A DNA stretch of 20,000 nucleotides from an uncultured virus (IMG/VR IMGVR_UViG_3300029923_000016) (lineage: Duplodnaviria > Heunggongvirae > Uroviricota > Caudoviricetes): the IMG/VR virus record IMGVR_UViG_3300029923_000016; one strand, written 5' to 3'. The notes beneath the pieces were generated by a model. That model searched no databases, had not been told where the DNA came from, and saw only the letters and a program-made list of their open reading frames with translations. A program made the translations under genes and the position numbers. Shown in pieces: positions 1,058-19,486 of this stretch; position 1 is the stretch's first letter; every line of letters starts with the position of its first letter.

Positions 1058-1068
1058 AGGAGAATCAA

Positions 1069-1758
1069 ATGTCAAAAATGTTGCCGTGGAGTTATTCGGG
1101 GCTAAGCCAATTTCAAGTATGCCCGTTGCAATTCTACGAGCATCGCGTACGTAAAAGCGTACCGTTCATAGAGACCGATGCGATTAAGTACGGCAAAGCC
1201 CTGCACAGCGCGGCGGAGTTTTACATCAAGTCCAACATGCCCTTGCCTGCCGAGTTTGCGTTCATGCAGAGCTACCTGGATAAGCTAATAGCGTTGCCGG
1301 GCAAAAAATATGTCGAGCTACAGATGGGCATAGCTATCAAAGATTGGGCGTTTGTCCATTGTGATTACTGGGATTCAAGCTGCTGGTATCGGGGCGTCAG
1401 TGATTTTATTTCCGTTGACCACGATAATGAGAAAGCTTACCTGGTCGATTTTAAGACCGGTAAGAGTGCAGCCTATGCCGACACCACCCAGTTGGCATTA
1501 CTGGCGGCGCTTATTTTTCTGCATTTCCCGAAGGTCAAAACGGTCAAAAGCATGCTGTTGTTCGTCAAGGCTGGACAAATTGTCAAAGCAGAGTATGATT
1601 TTGCCAGTCGGTTTACAGTGTTTGCGCATCTGAATCAGGACTTAAAACGCCTGAAAGCGGCGTACGAAAGTAACGTGTGGAATCCAACGCAGAACAATTT
1701 CTGCAAGCGCTGGTGTGCGGTACATACCTGTGTACATAACGGAGAATATAGTGAGTGA
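1069..1758 (+). CDS. Cas4-like / PD-(D/E)XK exonuclease
   Basis: N-terminal WSYSxL...CP, central E...D...DFKTG nuclease motif, QLxL motif and C-terminal C-x3-C-x4-C (four Cys typical of the Fe-S staple). RBS AGGAGA. Confidence 0.85.
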   Translation: MSKMLPWSYSGLSQFQVCPLQFYEHRVRKSVPFIETDAIKYGKALHSAAEFYIKSNMPLPAEFAFMQSYLDKLIALPGKKYVELQMGIAIKDWAFVHCDYWDSSCWYRGVSDFISVDHDNEKAYLVDFKTGKSAAYADTTQLALLAALIFLHFPKVKTVKSMLLFVKAGQIVKAEYDFASRFTVFAHLNQDLKRLKAAYESNVWNPTQNNFCKRWCAVHTCVHNGEYSE

Positions 1759-1972
1759 GGAAGAGGTAGCGTACTTAACGCTGGAGCATCTGAAAGCTAT
1801 CCGCAAGACCGGCGAGCGTACCGCAGAGGACGTGAAAGATATCATACACCGTGTGTCCTCACTTGAGAGGTCAACGGCATTACTACACCTTGATTTAGCT
1901 CAAATCAACTATCGTCTGGATACTTTCGATGGGCGCTTGGGGCATATCGAGAAACGATTGGAGTTAGAATGA
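1751..1972 (+). CDS. small coiled-coil hypothetical protein (73 aa)
   Basis: GTG at 1751 after GGAGA is preferred over the track start at 1715; heptad-like Leu pattern (LEHLKAIR...RLGHIEKRLEL). Confidence 0.7.
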   Translation: MSEEEVAYLTLEHLKAIRKTGERTAEDVKDIIHRVSSLERSTALLHLDLAQINYRLDTFDGRLGHIEKRLELE

Positions 1973-2214
1973 ATGAACTACCCACAAACGGCCCCGGCAA
2001 ATACGATGATATTTGTACGGTGGCGCGAGAAAGAACCGATGCGCAAGCCGCCATTGTTATTATAATTAATGGCGTGTTGGGCAGTGGTTTCTCACTACAG
2101 TCGGAACATCCGGATGTAGTAGTCCAACTACCCGATATGCTTGAAACAATGGCTAAAGAAATACGTGAAATAATTACTGAGGAGAAGGCAGATGCCGTAC
2201 AAAGACATGAATGA
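1969..2214 (+). CDS. hypothetical protein (81 aa)
   Basis: ATGA overlap with the upstream stop; GGAG RBS. Confidence 0.7.
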   Translation: MNELPTNGPGKYDDICTVARERTDAQAAIVIIINGVLGSGFSLQSEHPDVVVQLPDMLETMAKEIREIITEEKADAVQRHE

Positions 2215-2455
2215 CCGCGACCCGTCACACGAGGCCCAGGTCGAAAAGAAAAACCCCAAAGCCGTGGCCGCACGCAAGAAACGGCAGCAGGCTAGACAAT
2301 TGTACGATAAACTCGATATCCCTAGAAAAGGTAAGGATATTGACCATATTAAGGGCACCGAAGCCGGCAACGCCAAGAGCAATCTCAGGCTACAGACGCC
2401 GTCACAGAACCGGTCATTCCCACGTAATTCAAATCACACTGCAAAGAGGAAGTAA
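2192..2455 (+). CDS. small HNH-family endonuclease-like protein
   Basis: KDIDHIK...GN..SNLR...S.NRS matches the HNH (HNN variant) pattern; RBS GGAGAAGG. Confidence 0.75.
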   Translation: MPYKDMNDRDPSHEAQVEKKNPKAVAARKKRQQARQLYDKLDIPRKGKDIDHIKGTEAGNAKSNLRLQTPSQNRSFPRNSNHTAKRK

Positions 2456-2456
2456 C

Positions 2457-2669
2457 ATGCAAATATCAACCAAGTCAGTGATATCACTGGCAGAGGAAGC
2501 GGGGCTCCCGCCCTCTTTAATCGAGCGCCACACCGATGCTTTAACGCATTTTGCACTCCGCCTGCGCATGGCAGAACGGCGCGTTTGTCGTAATAAGCTG
2601 CGCAACTGGACCATAGACAAGTCCCTGAGCAAGCCGCCGCTACTTGAGGCGCTGACGGAGCATGATTGA
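2457..2669 (+). CDS. hypothetical protein (70 aa)
   Basis: ATG at 2457 after AGAGGA, directly following the HNH stop. The track's start at 2211 is probably overextended. Confidence 0.65.
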   Translation: MQISTKSVISLAEEAGLPPSLIERHTDALTHFALRLRMAERRVCRNKLRNWTIDKSLSKPPLLEALTEHD

Positions 2670-5307
2670 GATAATACATGATAAGGTGTTATCCGTCACC
2701 ACGGATAGCCCTGACGACATTACAACAGTAATAGACAAGTACAAGATAGACAATGGCAAAGTGCTCATCCCCTTTAATCTGGGGAATGTTCACATATTAA
2801 AAAACATGGGCTTTACGGTACCGTCGCCCATTGAGACTCGGTATGGGTGGCCTGGACTCCATAAACCCTTTTCGCATCAGCGCAGTATCGCTTCGTTTTT
2901 GACCTTGAATAGGCGGGCGTATAACTTTGGCGAATTAGGAATTGGCAAAACGAAAAGCGCTATCTGGGCTGCCGACTACCTACTAAGTATAGGTGCTATA
3001 CGGCGTGTATTGGTTATCGCGCCGCTTAGCATCCTCGATTCTGCATGGAAGCAGGAGATATTCAGGACAGTGATGCATCGGTCTGTTGATGTGGCGCATG
3101 GCACAAAGGAGAAACGCGAGGCAATAATCAATAGTAAAGCTGAGTTTATACTTATCAATTATGATGGCGTCGAGATTGTGATTGACGCTTTGGACCGAGG
3201 TAACTTTGATTTAATCATAATTGATGAGTGCTTTGTAGCTGGGACACGAGTTCTTACGCCTATTGGTTTTAGAGCTATTGAACAAATCGTAGAAGGTGAT
3301 ATAATAGAGACAAGTTGGGGGCCAAGACCCGTAACCAAAACGTTTCATAAACAATCATCCAACATAGTTGAAGTCGAGTTTGAAGATGGTATCAAAATTA
3401 CCTGCACAGAAGAGCACCCTTTCTCAACCCGAAATGGTTGGGTCGCCGCAAAAGACCTCCTTGGTGAAATATGTACTACATCAAGAGAATTGTCACACCT
3501 GCGGGACGCCGTTCGAGCAGAAGGTGTTTGCCAACCAGAAGGCATCTCACTATTGTTCTCGCGCATGTTGGAAAGAGTCGTACTATGTAGATTTGGTGTG
3601 CGGGCATTGCGGAAAAAAGTATCGAAAGGTAAAGAGTTACTTAAGAACCAACCCTGCAAAATATTGCAGCACAAAATGTACGGCGCAAGCGCGCTCTGCA
3701 AAAGTTATGGGGGAGACAGTTATGTGTCCGGTCTGCGGAGGGGAGCATTTTGTACCCCACAGAGTGTTGCGGTATCGTCCAGCATTAACCTGTTCCCGTT
3801 CCTGCGCCAGAAAGTTAGTGTGGCAAACAGAGCGAAAGCGGATGATGGATGGCGTACAGAAAGCAGCGGAGAAGCATCGGGGCCAACCCTCACCTCTCAG
3901 GGGGATTCCCCATACAGAAGAGCGCAAGCAACAACAGCGTGCGCTGGCAGTAGAGTTGGGGAGTCGGGAACCGTTCATGCGAGTGCGGGGCGGCAATGGT
4001 ACGGGTATGTCAAGAGTAGAGTTACTAATGCGCTCAATACTCCCAGAAAGTTTCCAATACAACTATATTGTAAAGACATTACAAAAGCGTGGAAGCGGGT
4101 ATCCCTATCACTACAAGCTGGATTTCGCAGACCCTTTACAGATGATTTGTTTAGAAGTAGACGGGTACAGCCACAATACAATACAGCGTCAAGAACAAGA
4201 CAGGAAGAAAGAGGCGTTGCTTCAGGACTTAGGGTGGTCAGTGTTACGCGTATCCAACAAGGATGTCCTCGCGATGTTTGGAATCTGGAAGTAGCGGGCC
4301 CTCATGATTATATCGTTGAGGATGTGCTAGTCCATAACTGCAACTACATAAAGAACGTCCAAACCCGCAAGCACAAGTTCATTAACAAGTTGATTAAAGC
4401 GGATACCTGGTGCTGGCTAATGACCGCTACACCGGCTGCGCAGAGCCCTTGTGATGCCTATGGTCTGGCGCGTATGATAGACCCTAAATCAGTGCCTCGG
4501 TCTTATGGTGCATTTAGGGAGATGGTGCAGTATAAAATCAATATGTTTATGTGGATAAATAAACCCGATGCAGAGCGAACAGTACACAGAGTTTTACAAC
4601 CCGCAATTAGATTTACTAAATCAGAATGTTTGGATTTACCTGAGCTATTATATGAGACGCGTGAAGTACCTCTGACCGCACAGCAAAACAAGTATTACAA
4701 ACTTCTAAAAAAGGAAATGATGATTCTCGCTGCGGGTACAACGGTCACTGCGGCGAACGCAGCGGTTCTGATTGGAAAGTTGTTGCAAATTTCAGCGGGC
4801 AACTGTTATGATGAACGTGGGGATATTATTGAGTTTGATATCTCCAACCGATTCAGAGAGCTGTGTGATATCATCCGTGAGACGCGTAACAAAACGATAG
4901 TGTTTGTGCAGTTTAGGAACTCCATCGAGCGAATCATGCGGATGCTGCAGGATGAAGGCATTACTTGCGAGGCCATTCACGGGAAAATCCCCATGAATAA
5001 GCGGGATGTCATCTTCTCTGATTTCCAAAACAAACCCGACCCGCAAGTGTTAATCATCCAGCCGCAAGCTGCGGCACACGGTGTGACATTGACAAAAGCG
5101 GATACGACAATATGGTTCGGGGTACCCATGTCCTTTGAAATTTACCAACAAGGGAATGGGCGTACGCACCGCGCCGGACAACGCAACCAATGTACTGTTG
5201 TCCATTTGATAGGTAGTGATGTTGAGAAGAAAGTATTGAACGCGTTGGACAAAAAGAATATGTCCGCAACGACTCTATTGGCATTATTTAAAGAGGTAAT
5301 AAAATGA
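2662..5307 (+). CDS. SNF2-family (SF2) helicase precursor containing an intein (881 aa; about 511 aa after splicing)
   Basis: Walker A GELGIGKT, motif Ia VLVIAPLS, Walker B LIIIDE|C, motif III MTATP, HelicC motifs HGVTLT and QGNGRTHRAGQ. Confidence 0.93.
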   Translation: MIEIIHDKVLSVTTDSPDDITTVIDKYKIDNGKVLIPFNLGNVHILKNMGFTVPSPIETRYGWPGLHKPFSHQRSIASFLTLNRRAYNFGELGIGKTKSAIWAADYLLSIGAIRRVLVIAPLSILDSAWKQEIFRTVMHRSVDVAHGTKEKREAIINSKAEFILINYDGVEIVIDALDRGNFDLIIIDECFVAGTRVLTPIGFRAIEQIVEGDIIETSWGPRPVTKTFHKQSSNIVEVEFEDGIKITCTEEHPFSTRNGWVAAKDLLGEICTTSRELSHLRDAVRAEGVCQPEGISLLFSRMLERVVLCRFGVRALRKKVSKGKELLKNQPCKILQHKMYGASALCKSYGGDSYVSGLRRGAFCTPQSVAVSSSINLFPFLRQKVSVANRAKADDGWRTESSGEASGPTLTSQGDSPYRRAQATTACAGSRVGESGTVHASAGRQWYGYVKSRVTNALNTPRKFPIQLYCKDITKAWKRVSLSLQAGFRRPFTDDLFRSRRVQPQYNTASRTRQEERGVASGLRVVSVTRIQQGCPRDVWNLEVAGPHDYIVEDVLVHNCNYIKNVQTRKHKFINKLIKADTWCWLMTATPAAQSPCDAYGLARMIDPKSVPRSYGAFREMVQYKINMFMWINKPDAERTVHRVLQPAIRFTKSECLDLPELLYETREVPLTAQQNKYYKLLKKEMMILAAGTTVTAANAAVLIGKLLQISAGNCYDERGDIIEFDISNRFRELCDIIRETRNKTIVFVQFRNSIERIMRMLQDEGITCEAIHGKIPMNKRDVIFSDFQNKPDPQVLIIQPQAAAHGVTLTKADTTIWFGVPMSFEIYQQGNGRTHRAGQRNQCTVVHLIGSDVEKKVLNALDKKNMSATTLLALFKEVIK
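3229..4338 (+). mobile_element. class 1 intein (370 aa) inserted in helicase Walker B
   Basis: Block A CFVAGTRVLTP, block B ITCTEEHPF (TxxH), block F VWNLEV..HDYIV, block G VLVHN followed by +1 Cys. Excision restores IIIDE-CNYIKN. Confidence 0.95.
3368..4294 (+). CDS. nested out-of-frame putative homing endonuclease (Zn-ribbon repeats, NUMOD3-like segment, Vsr/DUF559-like nuclease); true start uncertain
   Basis: Three CxxCG...CSxxC repeats, GIPHTEERK, and C-terminal E...YKLDFA...CLEVDGYSH...DRKKEALL..LGWSVLRV. Candidate starts are TTG 3368, ATG 3386, ATG 3434 and GTG 3464. Confidence 0.88.
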   Translation: MKSSLKMVSKLPAQKSTLSQPEMVGSPQKTSLVKYVLHQENCHTCGTPFEQKVFANQKASHYCSRACWKESYYVDLVCGHCGKKYRKVKSYLRTNPAKYCSTKCTAQARSAKVMGETVMCPVCGGEHFVPHRVLRYRPALTCSRSCARKLVWQTERKRMMDGVQKAAEKHRGQPSPLRGIPHTEERKQQQRALAVELGSREPFMRVRGGNGTGMSRVELLMRSILPESFQYNYIVKTLQKRGSGYPYHYKLDFADPLQMICLEVDGYSHNTIQRQEQDRKKEALLQDLGWSVLRVSNKDVLAMFGIWK

Positions 5308-5483
5308 CAGCAAGCGAAATAGAAGATTTTAATGATTTATTATCTGATGCTGAGATGAACGCCAGCACGGATTGGGAACTCGAATTCACCGGTAGTATGA
5401 GGGCGCATTATAAAAAATATGGCGATGACACCTATGTGTCCGCCAAGCAATTACATCACCTGGAGAAGATTGCAAATGTGTGA
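5304..5483 (+). CDS. small hypothetical protein (59 aa)
   Basis: ATGA overlap with the helicase stop, RBS GAGG; MTASEIEDFNDLLSDAE...DWELEF...SAKQLHHLEKIANV. Below the ORF-track cut-off. Confidence 0.7.
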   Translation: MTASEIEDFNDLLSDAEMNASTDWELEFTGSMRAHYKKYGDDTYVSAKQLHHLEKIANV

Positions 5484-5595
5484 GACGTTACATTTGATAT
5501 CCATTGTACTGCTTATTGGCGCTATCGGTATGATGTGGGTGCTACACAGTGTAGGCAAGGCGCTGAATAAACAAGATGAGCGGGATAAGAGTTGA
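5476..5595 (+). CDS. small single-pass membrane peptide (39 aa)
   Basis: RBS GGAG; MCETLHLISIVLLIGAIGMMWVLHSVGKALNKQDERDKS has one hydrophobic stretch and a charged tail. Confidence 0.55.
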   Translation: MCETLHLISIVLLIGAIGMMWVLHSVGKALNKQDERDKS

Positions 5596-5620
5596 CAAAC
5601 TAGCTTTACAACTGTATAAT
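5592..5620 (+). promoter_or_regulatory. consensus sigma70 promoter
   Basis: TTGACA (5592-5597), 17-bp spacer, TATAAT (5615-5620), upstream of the ORF at 5655. Confidence 0.9.
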
Positions 5621-7558: not shown

Positions 7559-10357
7559 ATGGACCCACATGATTTCCTCAGCTCCATCCTACCCAACACC
7601 GGCCCGTACTGTTTCACCCTCATTAAGAACGGCCTCGTTAATCAACAATTCATTGATGCTATCCCCACTGATGCCGAGCTCGTAGAGTTCGCCAACGACT
7701 ACGCCGACCACGATATTTATTTCGCCGTCGCCAGCTTCCAAACCAAAACCAGCCGCACCCAAGCCAATGTCGCCCAACTTAAATCCTTATGGATTGATTT
7801 GGACGTCGGCGGCAAATCAGCCTATGCTACCAAGAAGGATGCCAAACAAGCGCTTGATAAATTCGTCGCTGCTGCCGGGCTTCCTGCACCTACGCTGGTA
7901 GACTCCGGTGGTGGTGCACATATCTATTGGCCACTAACACAGGCTATTGATATCCCTGAGTGGAAGGCGTTGGTTCTGGCATTACTAAGCAAAGCGACGG
8001 AGCACGGGTTTAGCATTAAAGACATCGGTGTTTCCAAAGACAGCGCCCGCATTCTACGGGTTCCCGGAACAACTAACCATAAGTTCGACCCACTGCGACT
8101 CGTCGCCGTTATCAAGACTGGCACACCAACCGACCCGACTGTACTGGGGAGTTTGCTTAGCGTCGGCGCACCCATCCCGAATAATCCCAAAGTTAGAACG
8201 AATCTAACTTCACAGGCGGTAAGTAAACTCTCTCCGTTAACCCGCGCCTTGATGTCTCACCAAGGCCAGCAATACGGGCAGGTGATTACCCGGTCGATGC
8301 AGGGAACAGGTTGTGTGCAGTTGGCTAATGCTTATATCAATCAGGATGATTTAACGGGTATGCATTGGTGGAGCGTGATGTCTATCCCGCAGTTCACCGA
8401 GCAACGCCAGGAAGCGGTGCATAACCTCTCCTATCAGCACAGCAACTATTCAATCGAAGCCACCTTGCTTAAGGCCGAGCGCACCGACGGGCCGTATGCC
8501 TGCGCCAAGATAAGCGAGCATCGTCCGGAGCTCTGCACCGCCTGCCCTCATTACGGGAATATCACTTACCCTTTTTTGCTCGATAGGACCCCCCGCCCGG
8601 AGCAGGTCCACCCACTCAATGAAGACATTGCCCGCAGCGGCTTACCCCCCATAGTTTATCCGTATTTACCCGGCGCGCGGGCGGGTATTTATGTTAAACA
8701 ATTTATCCCTAACAAAGACGGCGACGGTGGCTCCATGGCCATCAAACACGTCTACAATCATACCTTTTACGTGTCAGGGCGCTGCCTTGACCCGCACGAG
8801 GGAGAGCTGGTCCACATGAAACTGATACGCCCCCACGACGGTGTTAAGGACTTTTCCGCGCCGTTATCCGAGATTACCGCCAAGGAGAAATGCAGGGAGC
8901 ACTTCTCCAAACAAGGCATGGCCGCAGATGCGTTTAAAATGAAGATGCTGATGGAATACACCACCGAGTTTTGCAGTTACTTACAAGAGATCGACAAAGC
9001 CGACAATATCCGTGTCCAGTTCGGTTGGCATGACAATGACACCTGCTTCATTGTCGGCAACCGGGAGATTCGCAAAGACGGCATCTATTACTCAATGCCC
9101 TCCAACGATACCCTGCAAGCCTCTGTCCAGTTTACCAAAGTCGGTACCTTGGCGGCATGGCAATCGGTCGCTCAGCGCTACGCAGGGCCTGATAATGAGG
9201 TACGGGCATTTGCCTTAATGATAGGCTTGGGCTGCCCGATGTTCAAATACTTGGGTCACGGCGGCGCTATCCTGCACTTGACCAACACACTATCGGGTGT
9301 CGGTAAGTCTGCCGCCCAAGGCTTGGCATTGAGCGCCTGGGGTCACCCCGACAAGGGCATGAGTCTGATGAAAGACACCCTGAACATGCGTCTGCATCGC
9401 CTGGGTGTGATGAACAATGTGGTGTTCTGCATGGATGAAATCACCCAGATGACCGCCGAAGAAGTCGGTACCCTGGCGTACTCGATTAGCCAAGGCCGAG
9501 GCAAAGGCCGCATGGAGGCGTCGGCCAACCGTGAGCGGGCCAATAACACCACCTGGAGCGTGCCGTGCATTACCTCGGGCAACGCCAATATCCATGACGT
9601 CTTAAAAGCCAACAGCATGAACTCCGATGGCGAGGTCATGCGGGTGCTGGAGATGCGCGTCGAGCCCATCACCGGCATCACCAAGGAAGAGTCTGACCGA
9701 CTGTTTATTGATGTCCTGCAGAACAACTACGGGCATGCGGGGGAAATCATTGTCCAGTATATCCTCAACCATCGGGAGGAGTGCTTCACGCGTCTGAAGG
9801 CCATCCAGAAAGAGTTTGATTTGGCCATGGGCTACCTTAACCCCGAGCGCTATTATTCATTGCTCACAACCACAGCCTTATGGGGTGGGGAGATTGGCAA
9901 CATGCTCGGCCTGATTGATATCCCGCTGGCGCCTATTGTAGATTACTTGATGAAACAAAACACAGACACCCGTAGCGAGGTGCGTACGCCTGAGCAAATA
10001 TCGGGTAATACCATCGGGACATTTATCAACGAGCACGCCGGCAATCATACCTTGGTGATTGACATGCGCCCGTCGAATATCCCCGGTGACCTACGCCCGG
10101 CGGTACAAATGCCGCGTGGCGAGCTGATGATACGCATTGAAACCGATACCAAAATGATTTATATCACCACTACCAGCCTGCGCAGTTGGTGCAGCAAGAA
10201 GCGGGTGTCGTTCAATGACACCGTCGAGGAGCTCAAGACCAAAGGTGCTTTGATAACCACCGGTCAAGTGAAGATGGCCGAAGGCACGCAGACATCATCG
10301 CCCGCAGTACGGGCGCTTATTTTAGACAAGACAATTTTAGATGAGATGGGGTTATAA
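7559..10357 (+). CDS. primase-helicase: RepB-like AEP primase fused to a DUF927-type P-loop domain
   Basis: LWIDLD, VDSGGGAHIYW and RILRVPGT.N.K primase motifs; C...CxxC Zn site; FGWH, SGVGKS (Walker A), FCMDEIT (Walker B), QGRGKGR. Confidence 0.88.
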   Translation: MDPHDFLSSILPNTGPYCFTLIKNGLVNQQFIDAIPTDAELVEFANDYADHDIYFAVASFQTKTSRTQANVAQLKSLWIDLDVGGKSAYATKKDAKQALDKFVAAAGLPAPTLVDSGGGAHIYWPLTQAIDIPEWKALVLALLSKATEHGFSIKDIGVSKDSARILRVPGTTNHKFDPLRLVAVIKTGTPTDPTVLGSLLSVGAPIPNNPKVRTNLTSQAVSKLSPLTRALMSHQGQQYGQVITRSMQGTGCVQLANAYINQDDLTGMHWWSVMSIPQFTEQRQEAVHNLSYQHSNYSIEATLLKAERTDGPYACAKISEHRPELCTACPHYGNITYPFLLDRTPRPEQVHPLNEDIARSGLPPIVYPYLPGARAGIYVKQFIPNKDGDGGSMAIKHVYNHTFYVSGRCLDPHEGELVHMKLIRPHDGVKDFSAPLSEITAKEKCREHFSKQGMAADAFKMKMLMEYTTEFCSYLQEIDKADNIRVQFGWHDNDTCFIVGNREIRKDGIYYSMPSNDTLQASVQFTKVGTLAAWQSVAQRYAGPDNEVRAFALMIGLGCPMFKYLGHGGAILHLTNTLSGVGKSAAQGLALSAWGHPDKGMSLMKDTLNMRLHRLGVMNNVVFCMDEITQMTAEEVGTLAYSISQGRGKGRMEASANRERANNTTWSVPCITSGNANIHDVLKANSMNSDGEVMRVLEMRVEPITGITKEESDRLFIDVLQNNYGHAGEIIVQYILNHREECFTRLKAIQKEFDLAMGYLNPERYYSLLTTTALWGGEIGNMLGLIDIPLAPIVDYLMKQNTDTRSEVRTPEQISGNTIGTFINEHAGNHTLVIDMRPSNIPGDLRPAVQMPRGELMIRIETDTKMIYITTTSLRSWCSKKRVSFNDTVEELKTKGALITTGQVKMAEGTQTSSPAVRALILDKTILDEMGL

Positions 10358-11119: not shown

Positions 11120-11351
11120 CCCGACAGAGTATCAAGGTTTGAGGCTCAAACTAGCGTGGGATGAATTGGAGATTGGCTTCTCATTTTTCATCCCGTGCTT
11201 AGACACGGAGACAATGCTCCGCACCATCTATACCGAAGCGGAGCGTAGGGGATATAAGCTTATCCACGAAGAACGTACAGAAAATGGTATGGCTGGCGTC
11301 CGTTGGTGGAGGGTTCCTCTTACGGACGATACACCCGATTATACGTCCTAG
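11106..11351 (+). CDS. hypothetical phage protein (81 aa)
   Basis: W..LEIG.SFFIPC...E.G..GVR.WR pattern; last gene of the + strand module. Confidence 0.7.
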   Translation: MPLFNPTEYQGLRLKLAWDELEIGFSFFIPCLDTETMLRTIYTEAERRGYKLIHEERTENGMAGVRWWRVPLTDDTPDYTS

Positions 11352-14300
11352 AGGCGCTCTCGGTAATCCGCTTTATCTGTGCATCAATGCGTTCGAGGCG
11401 CGCACGCTTAGCTTCTGGCGATATTCTATCATTCGGCGTCGCCATGATTTTGTCCTTTTGCGCTGTTAGATCGTGTATTTTTGCTGTTTTTTGGTTTACT
11501 TCTCGTTGCACGCTGTCAGATAACAACCGGCGGTTATCCGCACGCCCCAAGGCCAGATTGGCCTCCCGCCGCTTAAATTCCCGCGCTTCTTTGGTCTTGC
11601 CCAATGCCTCGAAGCGATTCACACTGGCCTTAGCTTCCCGCGCCGCGCCTCCCAAGGTATAGAAATCATCCACCCCCTGCGTCATCCGGTCGTTACGCAG
11701 CGGCATGCCCGGAATGTCTTTCGCTGATTTACCGTAACCGATATTAAACTGGTCTTCACGCGTGGCCGTATACGGAATATCCAAGCCGGCCCGTAGCGCC
11801 ATGTCGGTCACCATCATGGTCGTTGCCCCTGCATAGCCAAAATAGCCCTTAATAAAATGGTCGACCAAAAACGGTGACAGGCCGGCATGACCTAATAGTT
11901 TAGCCAGCTCTGAGGTCTTCTCGTTGTACTGCAGTTCCGGCGTCCCCGATAAATGCTTGTAGCGCTCGGGGATAATCGGGCGGTTGGTGTGGAAATCAAT
12001 ACCCGTGATATTCTCCAAGACCGGCTTGATAACTGTCGGCCCCATCGGTGCCCCGGCTAATATGCGCACTGTCGTATCCAACATAGCTTGACGGGTCTGA
12101 TACGGGTTCTCACTACCCTTATCCATCAGATATCGGTACACATGGTTCATGGCAATAAACGACAGTGAGAATACGTCCGCCCGCACCGTCATCGCATAGT
12201 CTGATTTAGAGCCGAACGGGTAGATATGGGTGTCGCGCTCCTGGATATCTTTCTTCTTGAACTCGTCGTCATCCCCCAACATCATGTTGTATAAAAAGGT
12301 AAACGTTGCCACTTGTGCCGAGGTGGCTGCCAAGCGCATCAGCGCTTCTTTGCGGGCAACGGGCGAGATGCCGCGCCCCGAGATGATATTGAGCTGGGTG
12401 CGGGTTGCCTGTAAATACGCCCCTAAAAACGGCGTCACTTGCATGAACGCACTTAAGGTCGCATTGGCACCCCGCTTCCTGAAGTTAATCACTTCAAACG
12501 CTCTTTGTTGGGCTATCATCTGCGCATTGGGTTGGCCTTTCATCTCTTTCATGGTACGCACATAGATGCCTTGACGGATGGCATTATCACCGACATTGGC
12601 GAAGTGCTCCAGTGCCCTATGCAGTGCCGCAAACGGACCTTTCTTAGCACGGCCATGCATGGCTAACTCGTGAATATGCTCGGTCGCCATACTGACGGTA
12701 TCTTTCTGTCCGACAATGCCGATGCCTTTTAAGTGCTCATGCGCATCGGTCGTGCCTTTCAACGTACCGGTCCACTCCTTGGCGATATCAATTAATAGCG
12801 CACCGGGGTTTTTGACCCCTGACGAGAACATCGCCGAGTAAGCGTCTTGCGGTAATTGATTTATCGTAAACAACGGGTCCAGTACGATGGCATTGCGCAG
12901 TCGGTTAGCGAACTTGGCGGCCATGGTTAAGGTAGGCAGGGCTACGGTATTGACGCCGTTAAACGCCGAGGTTAACAAAGGGTCTTCATACTCCCAATAC
13001 TCCTCACGCCCGTGCCGATAGACTTTAATGCCGCCGTTCTTGGTATTGGCCGCCGGCTTAACGGCACCGGGGTAAAAGTGCTTGGCGACAACCTCTTGGA
13101 GCTCCAGATTCTTGGCGTTCTTCACGCCTTTTACAAAGCTGTTGAGAATCCACTTCTCCATGTTCTCAACCATGTCTTTGACTTCCCGTTCGGAGCCTTT
13201 GATGGCATGCTCCTTTTGATTTGCCATTAAGCTCCGACCCCGTCCGCCCGCCATATAGCCATAAAATGCATCCGGGTCTTTCGCATCCATGAGCCGGTTG
13301 AACGGCACATACATCGTCGCGTCCATATAGGCTTTGGCCTGCTTCTCAGAATAGCGGCCCGTATCGACCAGGAACTTGACCATATAAGCCCGTACCCCAT
13401 GCCACTCTTTCAGTGCCTCGGCGTACTCGGGATGGTCGGCCAAGACTTTAAGCGCCGTGGCAATCTGGTCATCCGTCATGTGCTCTACATCCGCACGCCG
13501 CAAGATATTGGCGAACTTACGCTCAGCCATGGCTTTAACCTTAGGGTCGGTAGCCATATCAATGGCTTTCCGATAGGTCGCCGCCTGCTCACGGAACTCT
13601 TTGATACGCAGTGCTGAGGCAATATCGGTGAAAATGCCACTGACCGTCTCAAACGGCTTGCCTTGCTTCTTGGCATGCTTGGCCAGGATATCTTTCATCT
13701 TGGTGATGGAGAACTGCCCGGCCTTGGCCTCCCACTGCATCGTGTTTGGGTTGTAGTGCAACTCGCCTTGGATAGCGCCTTGGGCTGCCAGTGAATTGAC
13801 ATACACGGTCTGGCCTTGGAACGCCTGCGCCATAATCTTCTGTACCTCCGGCGTCGCCAAGCCCATCGCTTCCAAACGCGGCCGCAGTTGGTTATACAAT
13901 CCCGAGCTGTAGTCGAACAGTTCGTTCTCTATCTTGAGCACGGTGCGTTTTAGATTGGTCGAACGCGAGGGAATAGGCTTAGGTGGATTGGCTTTTAGGT
14001 GCTTCTCCCGCGCCGCTGCAAGCCGCTCCGCTTTTGCTGTTACGGCGGCTTCTTCAGACGAGGACAGCGCGTACGCTGTGTCAGCCCGTGAACCTGCATA
14101 TTTCAACGCCGACACCGCTAATTGCCGTGCGTCAGCCTCGGTGAACTTACTGCCAATGCCCAGATTAGCCCGCGCCCAATTACGGACGGCTGATATCAAT
14201 CGGCGAACCAATGAGTGCTTGGGTGCGTGCTCAACCAGATGGGCTAAGGCTTCTTCGGGAATCAAATGGCTTGGAGTGGACTTCGGTACCGCTTCACGCG

Positions 14301-16704
14301 CAGCGATAAACGCCGGGTCTTGACTGTTCATCGCTTCGGCTTTGTACTGCTCCCAGAGCTTGGGCCCGACCAGTTTGGCCATCCCGGCGTGTACGCCCGC
14401 TTCATGGAGCATCACGCTCTCAATAGTATTAGGCGTGAGTCGATTTGCTATGAAATGAGAAACGCCTGCTGCATCGACCATACCCTTCACATTGGGCGGA
14501 TGGTTCTCGCCGGGGAGCGTCGCTTGGGTATCATGGAACACCGCCTTGCCGCTGGCTATCATAGCCTTGAGTTCTTTGGGCAAATGGCGCTCTAATGACT
14601 TAGCTGTGTGTTGGGTCTCGGGCTCGGTGGACAAAGCAAAGGACTCAGGCTGGAACGCCTTACCAGTCTCCTGCAGCTTAGCCCACGCTTCATTCCGCTT
14701 GGCGTCTGCTTCAGGGCTTGGGTTATCTTCTGCCTCATTCTTTGCCCGAGTCCCTTCCTGATGGGCTTTGGCGACATCAGAGAAGGTTGGCTTTGGCGCG
14801 GCTTCTGAGGACGGGGGTATAGTCCCCAATACAGAACTTGCCTTTGGAGCAGATTGTGGTGTGGGAGCAACTTGGGCAATAGGCACTTCGGTTTCCTGCG
14901 CTGTCGCCGTAGTGTCCGGTGGCGGCTCCTGGGTCTCGGTAGTAACTGGAGTTTCTTCCGGTTTGGTTGTCGTTGTTTCGCTTTCCGGTGTCCATGGCTC
15001 GTTTTTACCTCGTAAAGTGGGTTCGGGAATTTCTTGGCTCTTTAATACCTGTTCCGCTGCATTGATATGGGAATCAAACTCTTCGTAGTCGAAATCATCC
15101 GGTGCGTGTTCATCGACCGCAGCTTTTGCCGCGTCAATGCCTTCTTGCGTGGTCAGGTCGGCGTCCATTAATGATTTGAACAATTTGGATTTGGGCGCAA
15201 CGCCGAAATCCTCGACGCGAGCGGCTTTTTTCTTGGCGTTGTTCTCTTCGTCGACGGCTTTGGCTTGCTTAGTCTGCGCGGCTAAGTCGGGTGGTGTGGT
15301 CTCGGTATCACCCGACTGTGGCGTAGCGGGTGTAGCGGGCGTACTGACACCGCCGGCAGCGCCGGGTATCAAAGCCCCGAAGAACCCTGAGGCGCCGGCC
15401 TCTTTAGCTTCTTGTCCTGCTTCCGGTCCGGTGATGGGCAGCCCTGCTTGCGCCCGCTCTAATTCCGATTGTGTCGCGCCGACGCCGGCTTCCAAGGTAC
15501 CTGACTTAACGGCATGTGTGCCTATACGGGTGAGGAGGTTCTTTTTAACCTCTTGCTCAACACTATCCCTAAACACGGCTTTGGCTTTCTTGCCTAAGCC
15601 TAGTGTAAAGCGGTCGGTGACGGCATCCAAAAAACCTGCGGGAATCGAGGCGGCCAAAGCATCTCCAGAAGATAAATCCTCCGCTTTGGATTTCTCCAAT
15701 GCTTGCCGATGCATCATATCGCCGAACTGCTGCACAATATAAGCCCCTACTGTAACGGGGAGCGCCAATAATGGATTAACGGCGCCTGCGGCCAAGCCCA
15801 TACCTAATGCCGGTGCCATGCCCGGTACAGACTCAGCGGTCTTCTCCATAGCAAAGCCCGGTAACTCTTTAGCGGCTGCCAAAGCACCGTCTTTGGAATA
15901 GATATCCTGAATATTTTGAAACGTCTGCGACGCTCTACCCGATTGTGGCTCTTGTGATTTGGACTTGATGCCCTCCATCTGTGCTTGTGCTTCGGGGCCA
16001 TTGCCCAAGGCCGAGCTTATGCCTAACCCGATGCCCTGCGTTGACTCTTTAAGCCCTTCCCAGCCCCGACTGAGCGCCGAACTAAAGCGTCCGGGTTGCT
16101 CGCCTTGCGGATTGTCTTGAATTTGCTGCAGCTCGTTAATGCGCTCAAACTTGGCTTTAAGCTCAGGCGTCAACGGTGCTTCCTCGACATCTGCCAAGTC
16201 CTCTAGCGTAGGTATGGCTTTTCGCGGTGGCGGTGCTTCGCCCGACTGAATGCGCTTGAACTTGGCAATCAGCTCCGGCGTTAACGGCGCTTCTTCAACG
16301 TCGGCTAAATCGTCCAACGTAGGTAGTCCGGTTGGCTGGGCTTGGGGTTGCGCACCGGCTAGCTGCAAGAACTGCAGGCCTTTGCCGACATAGTTCCGGG
16401 TCTCTCTATAAGGCGGCACGCCGCCATGCTTTTGGACAGCACCGGGGCCGGCATTATAGGCCGCCAGTGTCAGTGCCGGGTCACCGCCATGGGTATCATA
16501 GAGTGCATCAAGGTATTCATGCCCTACCCGCTCGCGCTCAGCAACCGAGTTATTACGAATGGGCGTGATACCGTAACCAGGCGACCGCGCCGTCGCGTCC
16601 ATGACCTGCATCGGCCCACGTGCACCTTTACCTGACACGGCATTAGCCTTGCCTCGGGACTCCATCCACTCGACGGTTTTGTGAAGCTCTTTAGGCGCAG
16701 CCAT
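11320..16704 (-). CDS. large polyvalent / internal virion protein with N-terminal lytic transglycosylase (1794 aa)
   Basis: SLT motifs MESRG, GARGPMQVM, AAYNAGPG and ETRNYV in aa 1-110; zincin-like LHEAGVH...EEALA; C-terminal INFRKRG...PFL...KPVLENITGIDF...PII...DHFIKGYFG resembling LPD38. Confidence 0.85.
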   Translation of the reverse strand: MAAPKELHKTVEWMESRGKANAVSGKGARGPMQVMDATARSPGYGITPIRNNSVAERERVGHEYLDALYDTHGGDPALTLAAYNAGPGAVQKHGGVPPYRETRNYVGKGLQFLQLAGAQPQAQPTGLPTLDDLADVEEAPLTPELIAKFKRIQSGEAPPPRKAIPTLEDLADVEEAPLTPELKAKFERINELQQIQDNPQGEQPGRFSSALSRGWEGLKESTQGIGLGISSALGNGPEAQAQMEGIKSKSQEPQSGRASQTFQNIQDIYSKDGALAAAKELPGFAMEKTAESVPGMAPALGMGLAAGAVNPLLALPVTVGAYIVQQFGDMMHRQALEKSKAEDLSSGDALAASIPAGFLDAVTDRFTLGLGKKAKAVFRDSVEQEVKKNLLTRIGTHAVKSGTLEAGVGATQSELERAQAGLPITGPEAGQEAKEAGASGFFGALIPGAAGGVSTPATPATPQSGDTETTPPDLAAQTKQAKAVDEENNAKKKAARVEDFGVAPKSKLFKSLMDADLTTQEGIDAAKAAVDEHAPDDFDYEEFDSHINAAEQVLKSQEIPEPTLRGKNEPWTPESETTTTKPEETPVTTETQEPPPDTTATAQETEVPIAQVAPTPQSAPKASSVLGTIPPSSEAAPKPTFSDVAKAHQEGTRAKNEAEDNPSPEADAKRNEAWAKLQETGKAFQPESFALSTEPETQHTAKSLERHLPKELKAMIASGKAVFHDTQATLPGENHPPNVKGMVDAAGVSHFIANRLTPNTIESVMLHEAGVHAGMAKLVGPKLWEQYKAEAMNSQDPAFIAAREAVPKSTPSHLIPEEALAHLVEHAPKHSLVRRLISAVRNWARANLGIGSKFTEADARQLAVSALKYAGSRADTAYALSSSEEAAVTAKAERLAAAREKHLKANPPKPIPSRSTNLKRTVLKIENELFDYSSGLYNQLRPRLEAMGLATPEVQKIMAQAFQGQTVYVNSLAAQGAIQGELHYNPNTMQWEAKAGQFSITKMKDILAKHAKKQGKPFETVSGIFTDIASALRIKEFREQAATYRKAIDMATDPKVKAMAERKFANILRRADVEHMTDDQIATALKVLADHPEYAEALKEWHGVRAYMVKFLVDTGRYSEKQAKAYMDATMYVPFNRLMDAKDPDAFYGYMAGGRGRSLMANQKEHAIKGSEREVKDMVENMEKWILNSFVKGVKNAKNLELQEVVAKHFYPGAVKPAANTKNGGIKVYRHGREEYWEYEDPLLTSAFNGVNTVALPTLTMAAKFANRLRNAIVLDPLFTINQLPQDAYSAMFSSGVKNPGALLIDIAKEWTGTLKGTTDAHEHLKGIGIVGQKDTVSMATEHIHELAMHGRAKKGPFAALHRALEHFANVGDNAIRQGIYVRTMKEMKGQPNAQMIAQQRAFEVINFRKRGANATLSAFMQVTPFLGAYLQATRTQLNIISGRGISPVARKEALMRLAATSAQVATFTFLYNMMLGDDDEFKKKDIQERDTHIYPFGSKSDYAMTVRADVFSLSFIAMNHVYRYLMDKGSENPYQTRQAMLDTTVRILAGAPMGPTVIKPVLENITGIDFHTNRPIIPERYKHLSGTPELQYNEKTSELAKLLGHAGLSPFLVDHFIKGYFGYAGATTMMVTDMALRAGLDIPYTATREDQFNIGYGKSAKDIPGMPLRNDRMTQGVDDFYTLGGAAREAKASVNRFEALGKTKEAREFKRREANLALGRADNRRLLSDSVQREVNQKTAKIHDLTAQKDKIMATPNDRISPEAKRARLERIDAQIKRITESASRTYNRVYRP
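16138..16326 (-). repeat. 26-aa internal duplication in the polyvalent protein
   Basis: LPTLDDLADVEEAPLTPELIAKFKRI (aa 127-152) versus IPTLEDLADVEEAPLTPELKAKFERI (aa 164-189). Confidence 0.9.
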
Positions 16705-16705
16705 C

Positions 16706-19486
16706 TTAGGTTCCTTGGTTGAATTTCAAAAACGCCTTGACTTCGGGAGGGCTTAGTTTGGTGCCATGGAAATCATAACCTCCACCCCCGCTGGTGCTCC
16801 CCCCGCCTTGCTTCATCTGCTCCATCACGCCATTGAGCGCCTCTTCTGATTTACTCTTATACTCGGCGACGTCCTGCTTTTTAAGCACCATCTTTCTGTT
16901 GATTTGTTCTGTGCTTAATTTAGAAGTATCCTCACCCGCCAGTACAATGGTAGGGTCATCACTTTGGAGTATGGCGTCGGCGTTCTTTATTTGTGCGTTA
17001 TACTGCCCCATTAGATTATCGAGATTGGTGTTCTTGGCGCTGTTCGGACTATTCGTCATCTGCGCCGTTGTAAACTTGGTCATATTATCGGCGTAGTTAC
17101 GGTTATTCTGATTGAACTGCTCCATCTCTGACTCAGCAAATTTAGCATCAGCAGCGGCTTTGAGCCTTTTATCAGACCTAAGTGTTTCTGCCGCTTTCTC
17201 ACGTTCAGCAGCGGCTTTCTCGGTATCACCTTTATGCTCTAAATGGTCAGCCCAATCAATCTGGAACTGCGCCTCGGATAGGGTGCGGGACAATTTCTCC
17301 TGGTCATCTTTATCTTTCAAGAAGCCCGGCATGGTTTCGGTTAATGCTTTAAGCCCTGCAGAGATGACCGGTCCTGGTGTCGAGCCCCAATGCGCGAAGA
17401 AGTCCGCCATGCGCAAGTTGAACTGGCGCTTGGACTCGTCGGCGGTATTGGCGCGTTGCCCCATGATTTCTTGACGACGTTGCAGTAACGCTTCCGGTGT
17501 CTCATACGGTGTGTCTTGCAGATTATTAAGTTTCGCTTGGTCTTCGGCAATCATCGGGTCAAACGGACTGCCGGCGGCTTGTGGAGCGGCCTGCGGGATA
17601 CCTTGATTAAGTGGTGGTGCCTCTTGCCAATTACCTTCTCCTCCGCCTGCACCCGTGGGTGTCATGGAGCCTTGTAGCTGCGGGATACCTGCGGGTGCAG
17701 GCTCGGCTTGTAATGGCTGTGGTACATTTAACGTCGGCTGCTCTGTGGGTGCAGCTTGTACCGAGTCTATACCGCCCGAGAACGCACCTTTGATAGCTTC
17801 CCATGCACCGGCGACATCCATCTTGCCGACGACATCACGGACCGGCTTTTTCAAATTCTCCATAATAGAATCAGAGCCGCCGCTGTCCAGCACTTGCTTG
17901 GCCTGCACATCGCCGTTCTCGGCGCGGACGGCCAGATACTTGTCCATATCAGATTTTTCAGAAGCGCCCTCAGCAATACCAACCAAAGCACCGGCTGCAC
18001 CCAAGCCCTTGCCTAACGTAGAGGCGACTTTGCCCAAGCCTTTCTTAACGGCTTGACCGGAGATACTTTGGCCTTCTTCTGTCCAGGAGCTAGGGGGCTT
18101 AACGGCCTCTATCCCTGGCGTTGGCTTAGGTGCGGCTGCCGTCTCTTGTGCCAGTAGCTGCTCTCTTGCTTGGCCTGCGTTCATCGGTTGACGGGGCTGA
18201 CCGGCACGGGCATTTTTAGCGGCATCTATGCGTGCCTGCTCACGTGCGGCACGGGCCGCCTCTATTTCAGGTTTGAGTTTAGTTAGCTGCTCTTTCATCG
18301 TGCCGCCCTGTGCAAACGCAACAATGCCGCCACCGGCCATGGTCTTTTCAGCCAATAGCTTTTTAGCCATCTGCCGCTCAATATCACTGGTGGTGGTCTG
18401 GATAATCTCTTGCAGTTGCTCGGGGTTCATCTGGTCTAAATCAGACTCTATAGCGCCCCCGACGTTATAACCGACAATGCCGCCCTCTTTCTTATAGGCG
18501 TTGTACATGCTGCCCATGGCACCGATACCACCGAATAGTTGCGACATCATGTTAGGTTGGGCTTGATAATTCTGTTGTGTCGAGCCAGTCTGAGCAACGG
18601 GAAAGCCGTGTATCAGACCGGACAGCCAGTTCATCTGGTCCATCGGGTAGGCTTGCGCCTTGTTGTAATTATTGGTAGCCGCGTCGATGACCTTCTGTTG
18701 CTGGTCTTGCTGCATGCTGCCGAACTGCGCTTGGGTGTTCAGGATATCGCGCTGGGCGCCGAGCTGGCCCGCACCAAGTGTGCCCAAGCCCATCCCTGCC
18801 TGGATGCCGGCGTTCATGCCCTGGATGCCGAACTGATAGCCTTGCATGCCTAAGTTGGCGCCGAACTGCTGCGCTTGCTGGGCATTCTGGAAGGCTTTCT
18901 CCGCGCCGGTGGACTGGATGCCGGTGATGGCCTGATTGCGATTGCGCTCGTTCTCCGCGCCCATGATGGCCTCACGACTACCCCCAAAGGCGCCATTGCG
19001 CGTTGCTGCGGCTTGCTGCTCTTGCCCGGTGATATCATATTGCCGGTTGGCTTGCCCGGTCTCGTAGTTCACGACATTGTTCATGTACGGTGACATGAAG
19101 CCTTTCAAGGCATTAGGGTCGGTCGCCATCTGGTTATATTGATTACCGGCATTGGCCGCCTGCATGCCGATACCCAGAGCGCCTGCGCCCGAGCCACCGA
19201 CCATCTGGCTGCCTTGCTGGAACTGGCCGGGGACTTGTAGATTGCCTGCGCCCTGGATGGCTTGGTTCTGCAGGCCTGACAGCGGTGCGACATAGTCGTT
19301 GGGATTCGTGCTGTACGGCTGGTAGGACTGTAGACCGGAAACATTACCCTGCGCGTCACGCTGGTAGACTTGGCCTTGTGCACTCGACATCATCGTATTG
19401 AAATACGGCTGCATGAAGTCGGGGATTGAGTTTGTATTGATGGTTTGGGTGGTATTGGTGGGGGTCTTCGGCGCACTGGAGCCCAT
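16706..19486 (-). CDS. probable internal virion / DNA ejection protein (926 aa)
   Basis: MGSS..T.T.Q N-terminus, Gln/Gly/Ala-rich, GAFGGSR motif, GGIV repeats; coupled to the transglycosylase gene, as podovirus ejection proteins are. Confidence 0.7.
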   Translation of the reverse strand: MGSSAPKTPTNTTQTINTNSIPDFMQPYFNTMMSSAQGQVYQRDAQGNVSGLQSYQPYSTNPNDYVAPLSGLQNQAIQGAGNLQVPGQFQQGSQMVGGSGAGALGIGMQAANAGNQYNQMATDPNALKGFMSPYMNNVVNYETGQANRQYDITGQEQQAAATRNGAFGGSREAIMGAENERNRNQAITGIQSTGAEKAFQNAQQAQQFGANLGMQGYQFGIQGMNAGIQAGMGLGTLGAGQLGAQRDILNTQAQFGSMQQDQQQKVIDAATNNYNKAQAYPMDQMNWLSGLIHGFPVAQTGSTQQNYQAQPNMMSQLFGGIGAMGSMYNAYKKEGGIVGYNVGGAIESDLDQMNPEQLQEIIQTTTSDIERQMAKKLLAEKTMAGGGIVAFAQGGTMKEQLTKLKPEIEAARAAREQARIDAAKNARAGQPRQPMNAGQAREQLLAQETAAAPKPTPGIEAVKPPSSWTEEGQSISGQAVKKGLGKVASTLGKGLGAAGALVGIAEGASEKSDMDKYLAVRAENGDVQAKQVLDSGGSDSIMENLKKPVRDVVGKMDVAGAWEAIKGAFSGGIDSVQAAPTEQPTLNVPQPLQAEPAPAGIPQLQGSMTPTGAGGGEGNWQEAPPLNQGIPQAAPQAAGSPFDPMIAEDQAKLNNLQDTPYETPEALLQRRQEIMGQRANTADESKRQFNLRMADFFAHWGSTPGPVISAGLKALTETMPGFLKDKDDQEKLSRTLSEAQFQIDWADHLEHKGDTEKAAAEREKAAETLRSDKRLKAAADAKFAESEMEQFNQNNRNYADNMTKFTTAQMTNSPNSAKNTNLDNLMGQYNAQIKNADAILQSDDPTIVLAGEDTSKLSTEQINRKMVLKKQDVAEYKSKSEEALNGVMEQMKQGGGSTSGGGGYDFHGTKLSPPEVKAFLKFNQGT

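Follow-up and report, generated by a model that had tools for sequence, protein, structure and literature searches.

A putative homing endonuclease gene nested in the +1 frame of a helicase intein in an uncultured phage and its relatives

A Vsr-like nuclease gene within a phage helicase intein

A stretch of 20,000 nucleotides (nt) of DNA from an uncultured member of the Caudoviricetes (IMG/VR record IMGVR_UViG_3300029923_000016), here referred to as the window, encodes a SNF2-family helicase whose reading frame (frame 0) runs without interruption through an intein, while the same DNA read one base further along (the +1 frame) encodes a second protein with the features of a Vsr/DUF559-type nuclease. 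The dual coding is real and is maintained by selection. We consider it highly probable that the two frames constitute a mobile, non-canonical intein, the splicing domain and homing endonuclease of which are encoded by two overlapping genes on the same strand. The computations presented here cover the two open frames, the families to which both products belong, selection on both frames, the conservation of the layout among relatives and the existence of an empty allele.

The helicase precursor gene is located at positions 2662..5307 (+), with its stop codon at 5305..5307, and its translated product comprises 881 amino acids (aa) including the intein. It matches the Pfam families Helicase_C (PF00271; 69.4 bits; E-value: 3.8e-19) and SNF2-rel_dom (PF00176; 58.3 bits; E-value: 8.6e-16) and the PHROG DNA helicase family phrog_62 (E-value: 1.1e-95), and the presence of both a SNF2-related N-terminal ATPase lobe and Helicase_C identifies it as a SNF2-family helicase of superfamily 2 (SF2). 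The N-extein (189 aa; 2662..3228, +) ends in ...DLIIIDE, which represents the Walker B motif or motif II, and the C-extein (322 aa; 4339..5304, +) begins with Cys+1 (CNYIKN...). The calculated length of the spliced helicase is 511 aa, while intein-less homologues, which carry the JGI name SNF2 family helicase, are 511-514 aa in length.

The insert at the Walker B site ("DE|C") comprises 370 aa (codons 190-559; 3229..4338, +), beginning with Cys1 and ending in VLVHN. The residues associated with splicing, namely Cys1, T60-x-x-H63 of block B and the terminal ...VLVHN (H369-N370) followed by Cys+1, could all be identified, and C1, F2, H63, V368, H369 and N370 are invariant across 38 related inteins. 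When excised, the sequence matches PT-HINT (29.1 bits; cut-off: 27.7) and, at a score slightly under the cut-off, Intein_splicing (34.1 bits; cut-off: 35.8). Furthermore, its structural model matches 24 solved HINT/intein chains in Foldseek at E <= 0.001, the best being the gp41-1 intein (6qaz; E-value: 5.4e-7), which we take to be one of the split inteins of Dassa et al. 2009. Taken together, the splicing residues, the Pfam matches and the resemblance of the modelled lobes to solved inteins identify the insert as a class-1 intein, and its intact residues, along with the preservation of an open helicase frame, suggest that it is excised by protein splicing.

Two confidently modelled lobes delimit this intein. 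The N-terminal splicing lobe (intein aa 1-95; 3229..3513, +), which includes block B (T60xxH63), has a predicted local distance difference test score (pLDDT) of 95-98, and the C-terminal splicing lobe (aa 331-370; 4219..4338, +), comprising blocks F and G, one of 91-97. The linker between them (aa 96-330; 3514..4218, +) is translated through and is predicted to be disordered (pLDDT: 37-60); arginine, serine, glycine and alanine make up 38% of its residues, compared to 23% in the exteins. No Pfam family match was obtained for the linker, and neither a LAGLIDADG nor an HNH family is listed by Pfam for frame 0. An initial annotation, derived from the sequence alone, had described an open helicase frame passing through a 370-aa intein with an Arg/Ser/Gly/Ala-rich filler devoid of LAGLIDADG and HNH motifs, and this description is borne out. 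Frame 0 is unbroken over all 881 codons, rather than being divided into two open reading frames (ORFs) carrying the halves of a split intein or fractured gene.

The product of the nested +1 frame

Nested within the intein is an open stretch of 308 codons and a TAG stop codon (3368..4294, +). Its offset from the helicase start (3368-2662 = 706 = 3x235+1) places it in the +1 frame, and its stop codon (4292..4294) lies in the frame-0 codons GAA GTA GCG, which encode E354, V355 and A356 of the intein, inside block F, where the initial annotation had placed it (GAA GTA GCG / AAG TAG). The N-terminal part contains three zinc-ribbon-like CxxC...CSxxC units (3491..3805, +; aa 42-146 of the 308-codon frame), which are likewise present as first described and are modelled as strand pairs (hairpins) plus a helix. 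Across 66 endonuclease sequences C120, C123 and C146 are invariant and C142 is nearly so, and phrog_15471 matches aa 75-158 (E-value: 1.2e-7). The +1 translation further comprises a helical segment, an RGGNG motif and a C-terminal domain. The NUMOD3-like segment that had been proposed in this protein could not be substantiated, as no NUMOD family is matched by the +1 ORF in Pfam at E <= 1, and an N-terminal module of the NUMOD type is therefore not recognized.

The C-terminal domain (aa 216-307; 4013..4288, +) had been interpreted as a Vsr/DUF559-like nuclease, and profile and structural comparisons agree with this assignment. DUF559 (PF04480) matches aa 248-302 of the +1 ORF (30.9 bits; cut-off: 20.6; E-value: 2.7e-7) and is carried by all twelve of twelve database relatives of the endonuclease. 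A model based on the 66-sequence alignment has a mean pLDDT of 81.3, exceeding 90 in the nuclease domain, and its top Foldseek match is the catalytic domain of I-Bth0305I (3r3p; prob: 1.0; E-value: 0.018; TMt: 0.57), followed by Vsr (1vsr; prob: 0.97) and a DUF559 protein (3hrl; prob: 0.99); the E-values of the three matches are modest (0.02-0.08). When the family profile was compared against the PDB, the matches were to 3hrl (7.4e-10) and 3r3p (0.0076). All four EDxHD residues, whose roles are assigned here after the relevant passages of Taylor et al. 2011 (PMC3239194), are present, namely E263 (4154, +), D265 (4160, +), H269 (4172, +) and D278 (4199, +); E263, H269 and D278 are invariant in the 66 sequences and D265 is conserved in at least 90% of them. 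By these sequence and model matches the +1 product is a Vsr/DUF559-type nuclease with intact catalytic residues, and it is predicted to be active.

Conservation of the layout among relatives

Relatives of the +1 ORF were identified by tblastn in 40 GenBank phage records (37 Vibrio, 1 Pseudomonas and 2 Corynebacterium), in each case beneath a single annotated coding sequence (CDS). Four of these, Vibrio phage CP-T1, Pseudomonas phage MR14, Vibrio phage K391 and Corynebacterium phage phi673 (L001-L004), were inspected, and in all four the match is +1 to the annotated helicase and falls in a single open stretch of 215-263 aa. The deposited annotation of each consists of one helicase CDS, with both the intein and the nested endonuclease gene unannotated, in keeping with the earlier prediction that standard gene callers would miss the latter. 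In a first IMG/VR scan, which returned 278 relatives of which 80 loci were framed, the endonuclease is nested in the +1 frame of a same-strand ORF of 448-2546 aa in 80/80 loci. The same relation was observed in 13/13 loci on contigs of bacterial metagenome-assembled genomes from approximately ten phyla or orders. A second IMG/VR scan seeded with distant members (517 relatives; 80 loci framed, 15 of the 80 contigs repeating the first scan) yielded 77 loci with a nested +1 gene, one of them at a contig edge, and three in which the endonuclease is free-standing.

The usual junction pattern in these loci is hhhhDE|CF.xGT ... VHN|C(H/S/T). The first IMG/VR scan yielded 59 non-redundant viral host ORFs, and 53 of these were searched for host families. 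Forty-five of the 53 belong to helicase families (SNF2, ResIII, DEAD, RecQ and Helicase_C), while two are clamp-loader-like, one is a terminase, one has a methylase match only and four are without a host family. With this spread of hosts, the element occupies Walker B sites in several kinds of P-loop nucleoside triphosphatase (NTPase), which suggests extein switching between P-loop NTPases at this site. Among the loci outside the helicases, the unit of intein and nested endonuclease is situated in clamp-loader-like (DNA_pol3_delta2/AAA) ORFs in L051 and L080 and in a terminase-large-subunit ORF in L062. Four of the helicases (L029, L052, L067 and L071) also harbor a second, canonical intein elsewhere, with an in-frame LAGLIDADG endonuclease (Pfam LAGLIDADG_3 / Hom_end).

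Dual coding and selection

The probability of an open intein frame arising by chance was simulated by fixing the +1 protein and redrawing its synonymous codons, either according to extein codon usage or by permuting its own codons (400 simulations each). For the window, 14.3 and 9.0 intein-frame stop codons are expected under the two models, respectively, while none is observed, and 0/400 simulations were stop-free under each. Across 64 non-redundant loci, a single intein-frame stop is observed in the overlap, compared to 822 (recoded) or 628 (permuted) expected, while the third frame of the same 64 loci contains 1039 stops against 791 expected. The suggestion that the stop-free intein frame exceeds chance, with selection on both frames, is upheld by these counts: selection holds the intein frame free of stop codons.

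At the protein level it is the +1 frame that is constrained across the family. Translations of the endonuclease frame resemble one another at E <= 1e-5 in 2016/2016 pairs (median: 99 bits), whereas those of frame 0 from the same DNA do so in 763/2016 pairs (median: 32 bits). Differences at endonuclease codon positions 1, 2 and 3 number 778, 754 and 1398, respectively (27/26/48%), over 4147 codons in 17 independent pairs. The core of the overlap, with shares of 26/23/51%, is dominated by the endonuclease frame and resembles the ordinary coding pattern of the C-extein control (28/20/51%). Before the first CxxC, where the overlap covers the N-lobe, the intein third position gains weight (25/40/35%), and in the 20 terminal codons, which cover block F, both frames are constrained (34/34/32%, at a lower rate of 0.50 vs 0.73 differences per codon). 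The regional shares thus indicate that the dominant frame is that of the intein at the 5′ end, that of the endonuclease in the middle of the overlap and both at the 3′ end. The initial annotation had anticipated from the ratio of nonsynonymous to synonymous changes (dN/dS) a constrained +1 frame and only stop avoidance in the linker; the core agrees with this, while at the ends of the overlap, over the splicing lobes, the intein frame is also constrained. These results apply to the family, the test lacking power inside the window's own lineage because the copies are nearly identical. Beneath the dual-coded stretch, unusually long antisense open frames can also be observed (3345-3701, -, 118 aa; 3637-4062, -, 141 aa), which probably arise as a side effect of the sense strand avoiding stop codons.

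Expression and proposed mobility of the element

The most likely endonuclease gene encodes 302 aa (3386..4294, +) and starts at an ATG formed from the frame-0 codons GAT GGT (D53 G54). Its position is homologous to that of the ATG at which the gene begins in 13 related loci, 35-36 codons before the first CxxC, and ATG 3434 and GTG 3464 may serve as alternative starts. At the family level, a start codon is found upstream of the first CxxC in 62/62 loci, and the mean pairing of these starts with the anti-Shine-Dalgarno (anti-SD) sequence is -5.85 kcal/mol, compared to -2.36 kcal/mol in matched control regions (Wilcoxon p: 2.7e-9). The start codons and the above-control pairing together support internal initiation across the family. 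A promoter-like site (TTGAAC, 16 nt, TG-TATAAT; 3278..3305, +) was identified 81 nt upstream of ATG 3386 in a consensus scan (10/12), and this consensus match is offered as a lead only.

From the above we infer how the element could operate in terms of its splicing, internal initiation, nuclease activity and nuclease target. Frame 0 would be translated into a helicase precursor with HINT lobes at both ends of the insert, and these lobes would excise the 370-aa intein and ligate ...IIIDE to CNYIKN..., giving rise to the 511-aa SNF2 helicase. The middle of the intein, approximately 235 aa in length, would serve merely as a disordered tether that is required to be stop-free. The +1 frame would be translated, most likely by internal initiation at ATG 3386, into a protein of approximately 302 aa, which by analogy with I-Bth0305I is expected to cleave helicase alleles that lack the intein, at the DE|A/C site or close to it. 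Repair of the cut allele would then copy the whole element into it, i.e. homing.

Natural variants

An empty allele is represented by the protein P0014 (514 aa), which has exteins 95% identical to those of the window, reads IIIDE-ANYIKN at the insertion site and contains no intein. A search for its DNA in IMG/VR and one metagenome returned only intein-bearing copies, and no joint skipping the intein was detected in two deep DNA runs, the assembled contigs of which drop rare variants. Reduced forms of the element are also found. A close relative of the window's helicase (L083; 2-1720) contains a 167-aa mini-intein, the +1 frame of which retains a 103-aa endonuclease stump sharing 70% identity with the C-terminal part of the window's protein; this represents endonuclease decay by internal deletion. 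The linker is likewise shortened in P0015.

One SNF2 helicase is fractured (L031; 131-2640). Its first ORF comprises the N-extein, the N-terminal intein lobe and the linker and stops at 1645, while the second (1678..2640) comprises the C-extein without the C-terminal intein part (IntC). The nested +1 endonuclease gene is intact (1062..1652) and is preceded by a strong Shine-Dalgarno (SD) sequence, with the stop codon of the first ORF located 7 nt before its own. This is the sole locus with an intein-frame stop among the 64 non-redundant loci and the sole fractured locus among 163 framed loci of the family.

Free-standing endonuclease genes are located directly upstream of intein-less SF2 helicases in L171 (3414-5706) and L173 (3358-5626), abutting or overlapping the helicase start, and these helicases read VVIDECHRS and LIIDEAHRA, respectively. 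A further free-standing family member is found in a replication module (L181; 3338-3979). The initial proposal that an endonuclease gene invaded a mini-intein is plausible in view of the free-standing relatives in L171 and L173 and the fractured derivative L031, and the composite may represent an intermediate toward split inteins. In a quick tree of 118 endonucleases, the three free-standing genes are placed at three different, weakly supported positions (supports: 81-93), a placement compatible with both escape from the intein and entry into it.

Finally, two proteins carry the nuclease in a single frame with other parts of the element. P0166 (496 aa) comprises the N-extein, the N-terminal intein part (IntN) and the endonuclease, and is known as a protein only, from one short contig; no DNA encoding it was found in IMG/VR. 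P0281 (807 aa), a UvrD-type helicase from a single 2.8-kb contig, has a Walker B intein with the nuclease domain fully in frame, and a search for similar DNA yielded 80 UvrD-type loci, 0/80 of which had an endonuclease-like match. Either protein may be real or an error.

Alternative explanations

Several observations weigh against two overlapping genes of a still mobile intein. Pairing with the anti-SD sequence before ATG 3386 is weak (-2.5 kcal/mol) and is equalled by 72% of control regions, making this start uncertain. Contigs from an RNA library cover the exteins only (2710-2951 and 5028-5255), and these may represent DNA carry-over and are uninformative on absence, starts or strand. The empty allele is known as a protein only, with the homing site and any co-conversion tract unseen as DNA. 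P0166 and P0281 indicate either that a separate gene is not the sole viable layout or that their contigs contain errors. Furthermore, the best Foldseek E-value for the nuclease is modest (0.018), as the multidomain model was scored as a whole, and the copy in the window could be intact yet no longer active.

The last of these points raises the possibility that the +1 ORF of the window is a relic, intact-looking but inactive, such that only the read-through of the helicase still acts. Decay does occur in close kin, as in the mini-intein of L083 with its endonuclease stump and the shortened linker of P0015, and the near-identity of the window's copies deprives the selection test of power in precisely this lineage. 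We nevertheless consider a relic unlikely, since the ORF is open over its full length with all invariant catalytic and zinc-binding residues retained, and since an empty allele with 95% identical exteins co-exists with it, as expected of an element that is still cycling.

A separate endonuclease gene would not be required if a programmed +1 ribosomal frameshift out of the helicase/intein frame produced a fusion of N-extein, IntN and endonuclease. The weak SD pairing in the window would fit such a mechanism, and P0166 is exactly such a fusion in one frame. However, the endonuclease has its own start codon in 62/62 loci with anti-SD pairing above background, a +1-frame stop is located just upstream of the open stretch in 5/5 loci inspected, and the free-standing relatives are ordinary genes; in addition, no conserved slippery site was noticed, although no formal search for one was made. 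A frameshift thus appears improbable, and internal initiation of a nested gene is preferred.

It is more improbable still that the frame-0 linker itself functions as a folded or regulatory domain, with both frames encoding working domains across the whole overlap. A few linker columns, L295 and Q296, are invariant in the 38 related inteins, but these correspond to the Tyr-Lys codons of the +1 frame (Y249/K250) read one base earlier, and their conservation is therefore passive. The low pLDDT of 37-60, the lack of a family match and of a frame-0 third-position signal in the core, and the variable length of the linker, which is deleted in L083 and P0015, all argue against such a function and are consistent with a tether beneath the endonuclease gene.

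Six other assemblies (L005-L008, L182 and L183) contain the 2646-nt gene at 100% identity and without gaps, L009 differs by one mismatch, and a DNA contig of depth 67 from the public run X17 spans 2622-5600 without differences, although these identical assemblies and the X17 contig may partly be the window's own source. Two compensating sequencing or assembly indels concealing an ordinary in-frame endonuclease, as the related in-frame nuclease domain in the UvrD-type helicase intein of P0281 might suggest, can practically be discounted, as such indels did not materialize in these sequences, the +1 relation recurs in 4/4, 80/80, 13/13 and 77/80 diverged loci and a frame 0 free of stop codons would not result from an error (0/400 simulations).

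Comparison with known systems

Gorbalenya 1998, which both the Gosselin and the Phillips preprints cite, reportedly deals with intein endonucleases that are read out of frame or from the opposite strand. The initial annotation had regarded the present layout as a third architecture. This claim is not sustained, as inteins with endonucleases encoded in another frame or antisense to the intein have been published: the relevant passages of Gosselin, Arsenault & Gogarten (bioRxiv 10.1101/2025.01.02.630785) describe LAGLIDADG and VSR-like endonucleases on the antisense strand and EndoVII-like ones on the sense strand ("in frame 3"), and those of Phillips, DeSimone & Gogarten (bioRxiv 10.64898/2026.09.14.751524) a LAGLIDADG "+2ORF" in cyanobacterial dnaX under frame-specific selection. 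The class of architecture is already in print, and the element described here is not a new architecture. It belongs with the non-canonical inteins: an endonuclease ORF occupies another frame of an uninterrupted intein, the endonuclease frame is under purifying selection and the intein frame avoids stop codons. In common with the published cases, the intein frame is open, the endonuclease is situated between the splicing blocks and its frame is under purifying selection, the distribution is sporadic with intein-free alleles, and the proposed origin is that a free-standing endonuclease gene invaded an intein. It differs in that the endonuclease is Vsr-like (EDxHD), is encoded in the sense +1 frame and is located at the Walker B site of SF2 helicases, as well as of clamp-loader-like and terminase proteins, and in its occurrence in hundreds of viral contigs and many host phyla. 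The hosts named in the corresponding passages of the former preprint (bioRxiv 10.1101/2025.01.02.630785) are the actinophage DNA polymerase, minor capsid, terminase and thymidylate synthase, with no helicase among them. Among open-access papers and bioRxiv, where preprint supplements may list cases, no account was found of helicase inteins with a Vsr-like endonuclease on the sense strand in +1, and the passages of Novikova et al. 2016 consulted likewise describe none.

The fractured genes of Dassa et al. 2009 (PMC2677866), in the passages concerned, have a free-standing Vsr-like endonuclease between the halves of a split intein. The type of endonuclease and the setting in phage DNA-metabolism genes are shared with the present element, and in both the 3′ end of the endonuclease gene overlaps the downstream intein part, by 6-69 bp in the fractured genes and by 76 nt of the C-lobe here. 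Unlike in the fractured genes, the intein is encoded in one continuous ORF which should splice in cis, and the endonuclease is overprinted rather than intercalated. The endonuclease itself resembles I-Bth0305I, as described in parts of Taylor et al. 2011 (PMC3239194; 3r3p), in its catalytic fold and E/D/H/D residues and in the arrangement of N-terminal DNA-binding modules and a C-terminal nuclease. The two sequences are distantly related (17% identity when aligned by structure), and I-Bth0305I is intron-encoded and has NUMOD2/HTH (helix-turn-helix) modules without zinc, whereas the endonuclease here is nested in an intein and has three zinc-ribbon-like units. An HNH endonuclease encoded out of frame in a methylase insert is reported in the pertinent section of Arsenault et al. 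2025 (PMC11855218), and there, too, the gene of a homing endonuclease overprints an insert open in the host frame and is missed by gene callers; that insert has no splicing domain, while here a complete intein surrounds the overprinted gene.

Genomic setting of the window

The window represents phage DNA, with PHROG matches including an exonuclease (1069..1758), a primase/helicase (7559..10357) and, on the minus strand, a virion protein that contains a lytic domain (11320..16704, -). No PHROG match at E <= 1e-5 was obtained for a 152-aa ORF directly upstream of the helicase gene (2211-2669, +), nor for a 926-aa ORF at 16706-19486 (-). The region 3000-4600 had no blastn match among GenBank phages. 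In run X17, a low-depth DNA contig (depth: 5.7; record 5) matches the start of the helicase gene (2622-2702) and then diverges, which points to a related strain or allele in the same sample.

Evolutionary and practical implications

A tentative reading, which we regard as possible though short of probable, is that the family descends from one ancient intein-endonuclease composite, whose +1 overlap became frozen because both ends of the endonuclease gene are tied to essential splicing blocks, with the start codon and SD sequence in codons of the N-lobe and the stop codon in codons of blocks F/G, and which has hopped between P-loop NTPases by recognizing the DNA that encodes Walker B. The hosts between which it would, on the same tentative footing, have moved are unrelated, namely SNF2, ResIII/DEAD and RecQ helicases, a clamp loader and a terminase. 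If this is true, the variants would form a living series, consisting of the empty allele, the full element, the mini-intein, the fractured helicase, the free-standing genes and the two in-frame fusions, and the origin of canonical and split inteins would become directly testable.

The main interest of the family lies in its size, the strictness of its layout and its natural intermediates. For annotation, it shows that a nested endonuclease gene has been overlooked in phage records, and from a practical perspective it may yield compact domains for splicing in cis in which a long disordered insert is tolerated, as well as uncharacterised EDxHD endonucleases. In evolutionary terms, it is a large and old example, strictly conserved, of the same strand encoding two proteins over approximately 0.9 kb, with the dominant frame switching along the overlap. 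For the biology of inteins, it favours the order in which the splicing domain came first and the endonuclease invaded later, and supplies what may be natural intermediates to mini, split and in-frame inteins.

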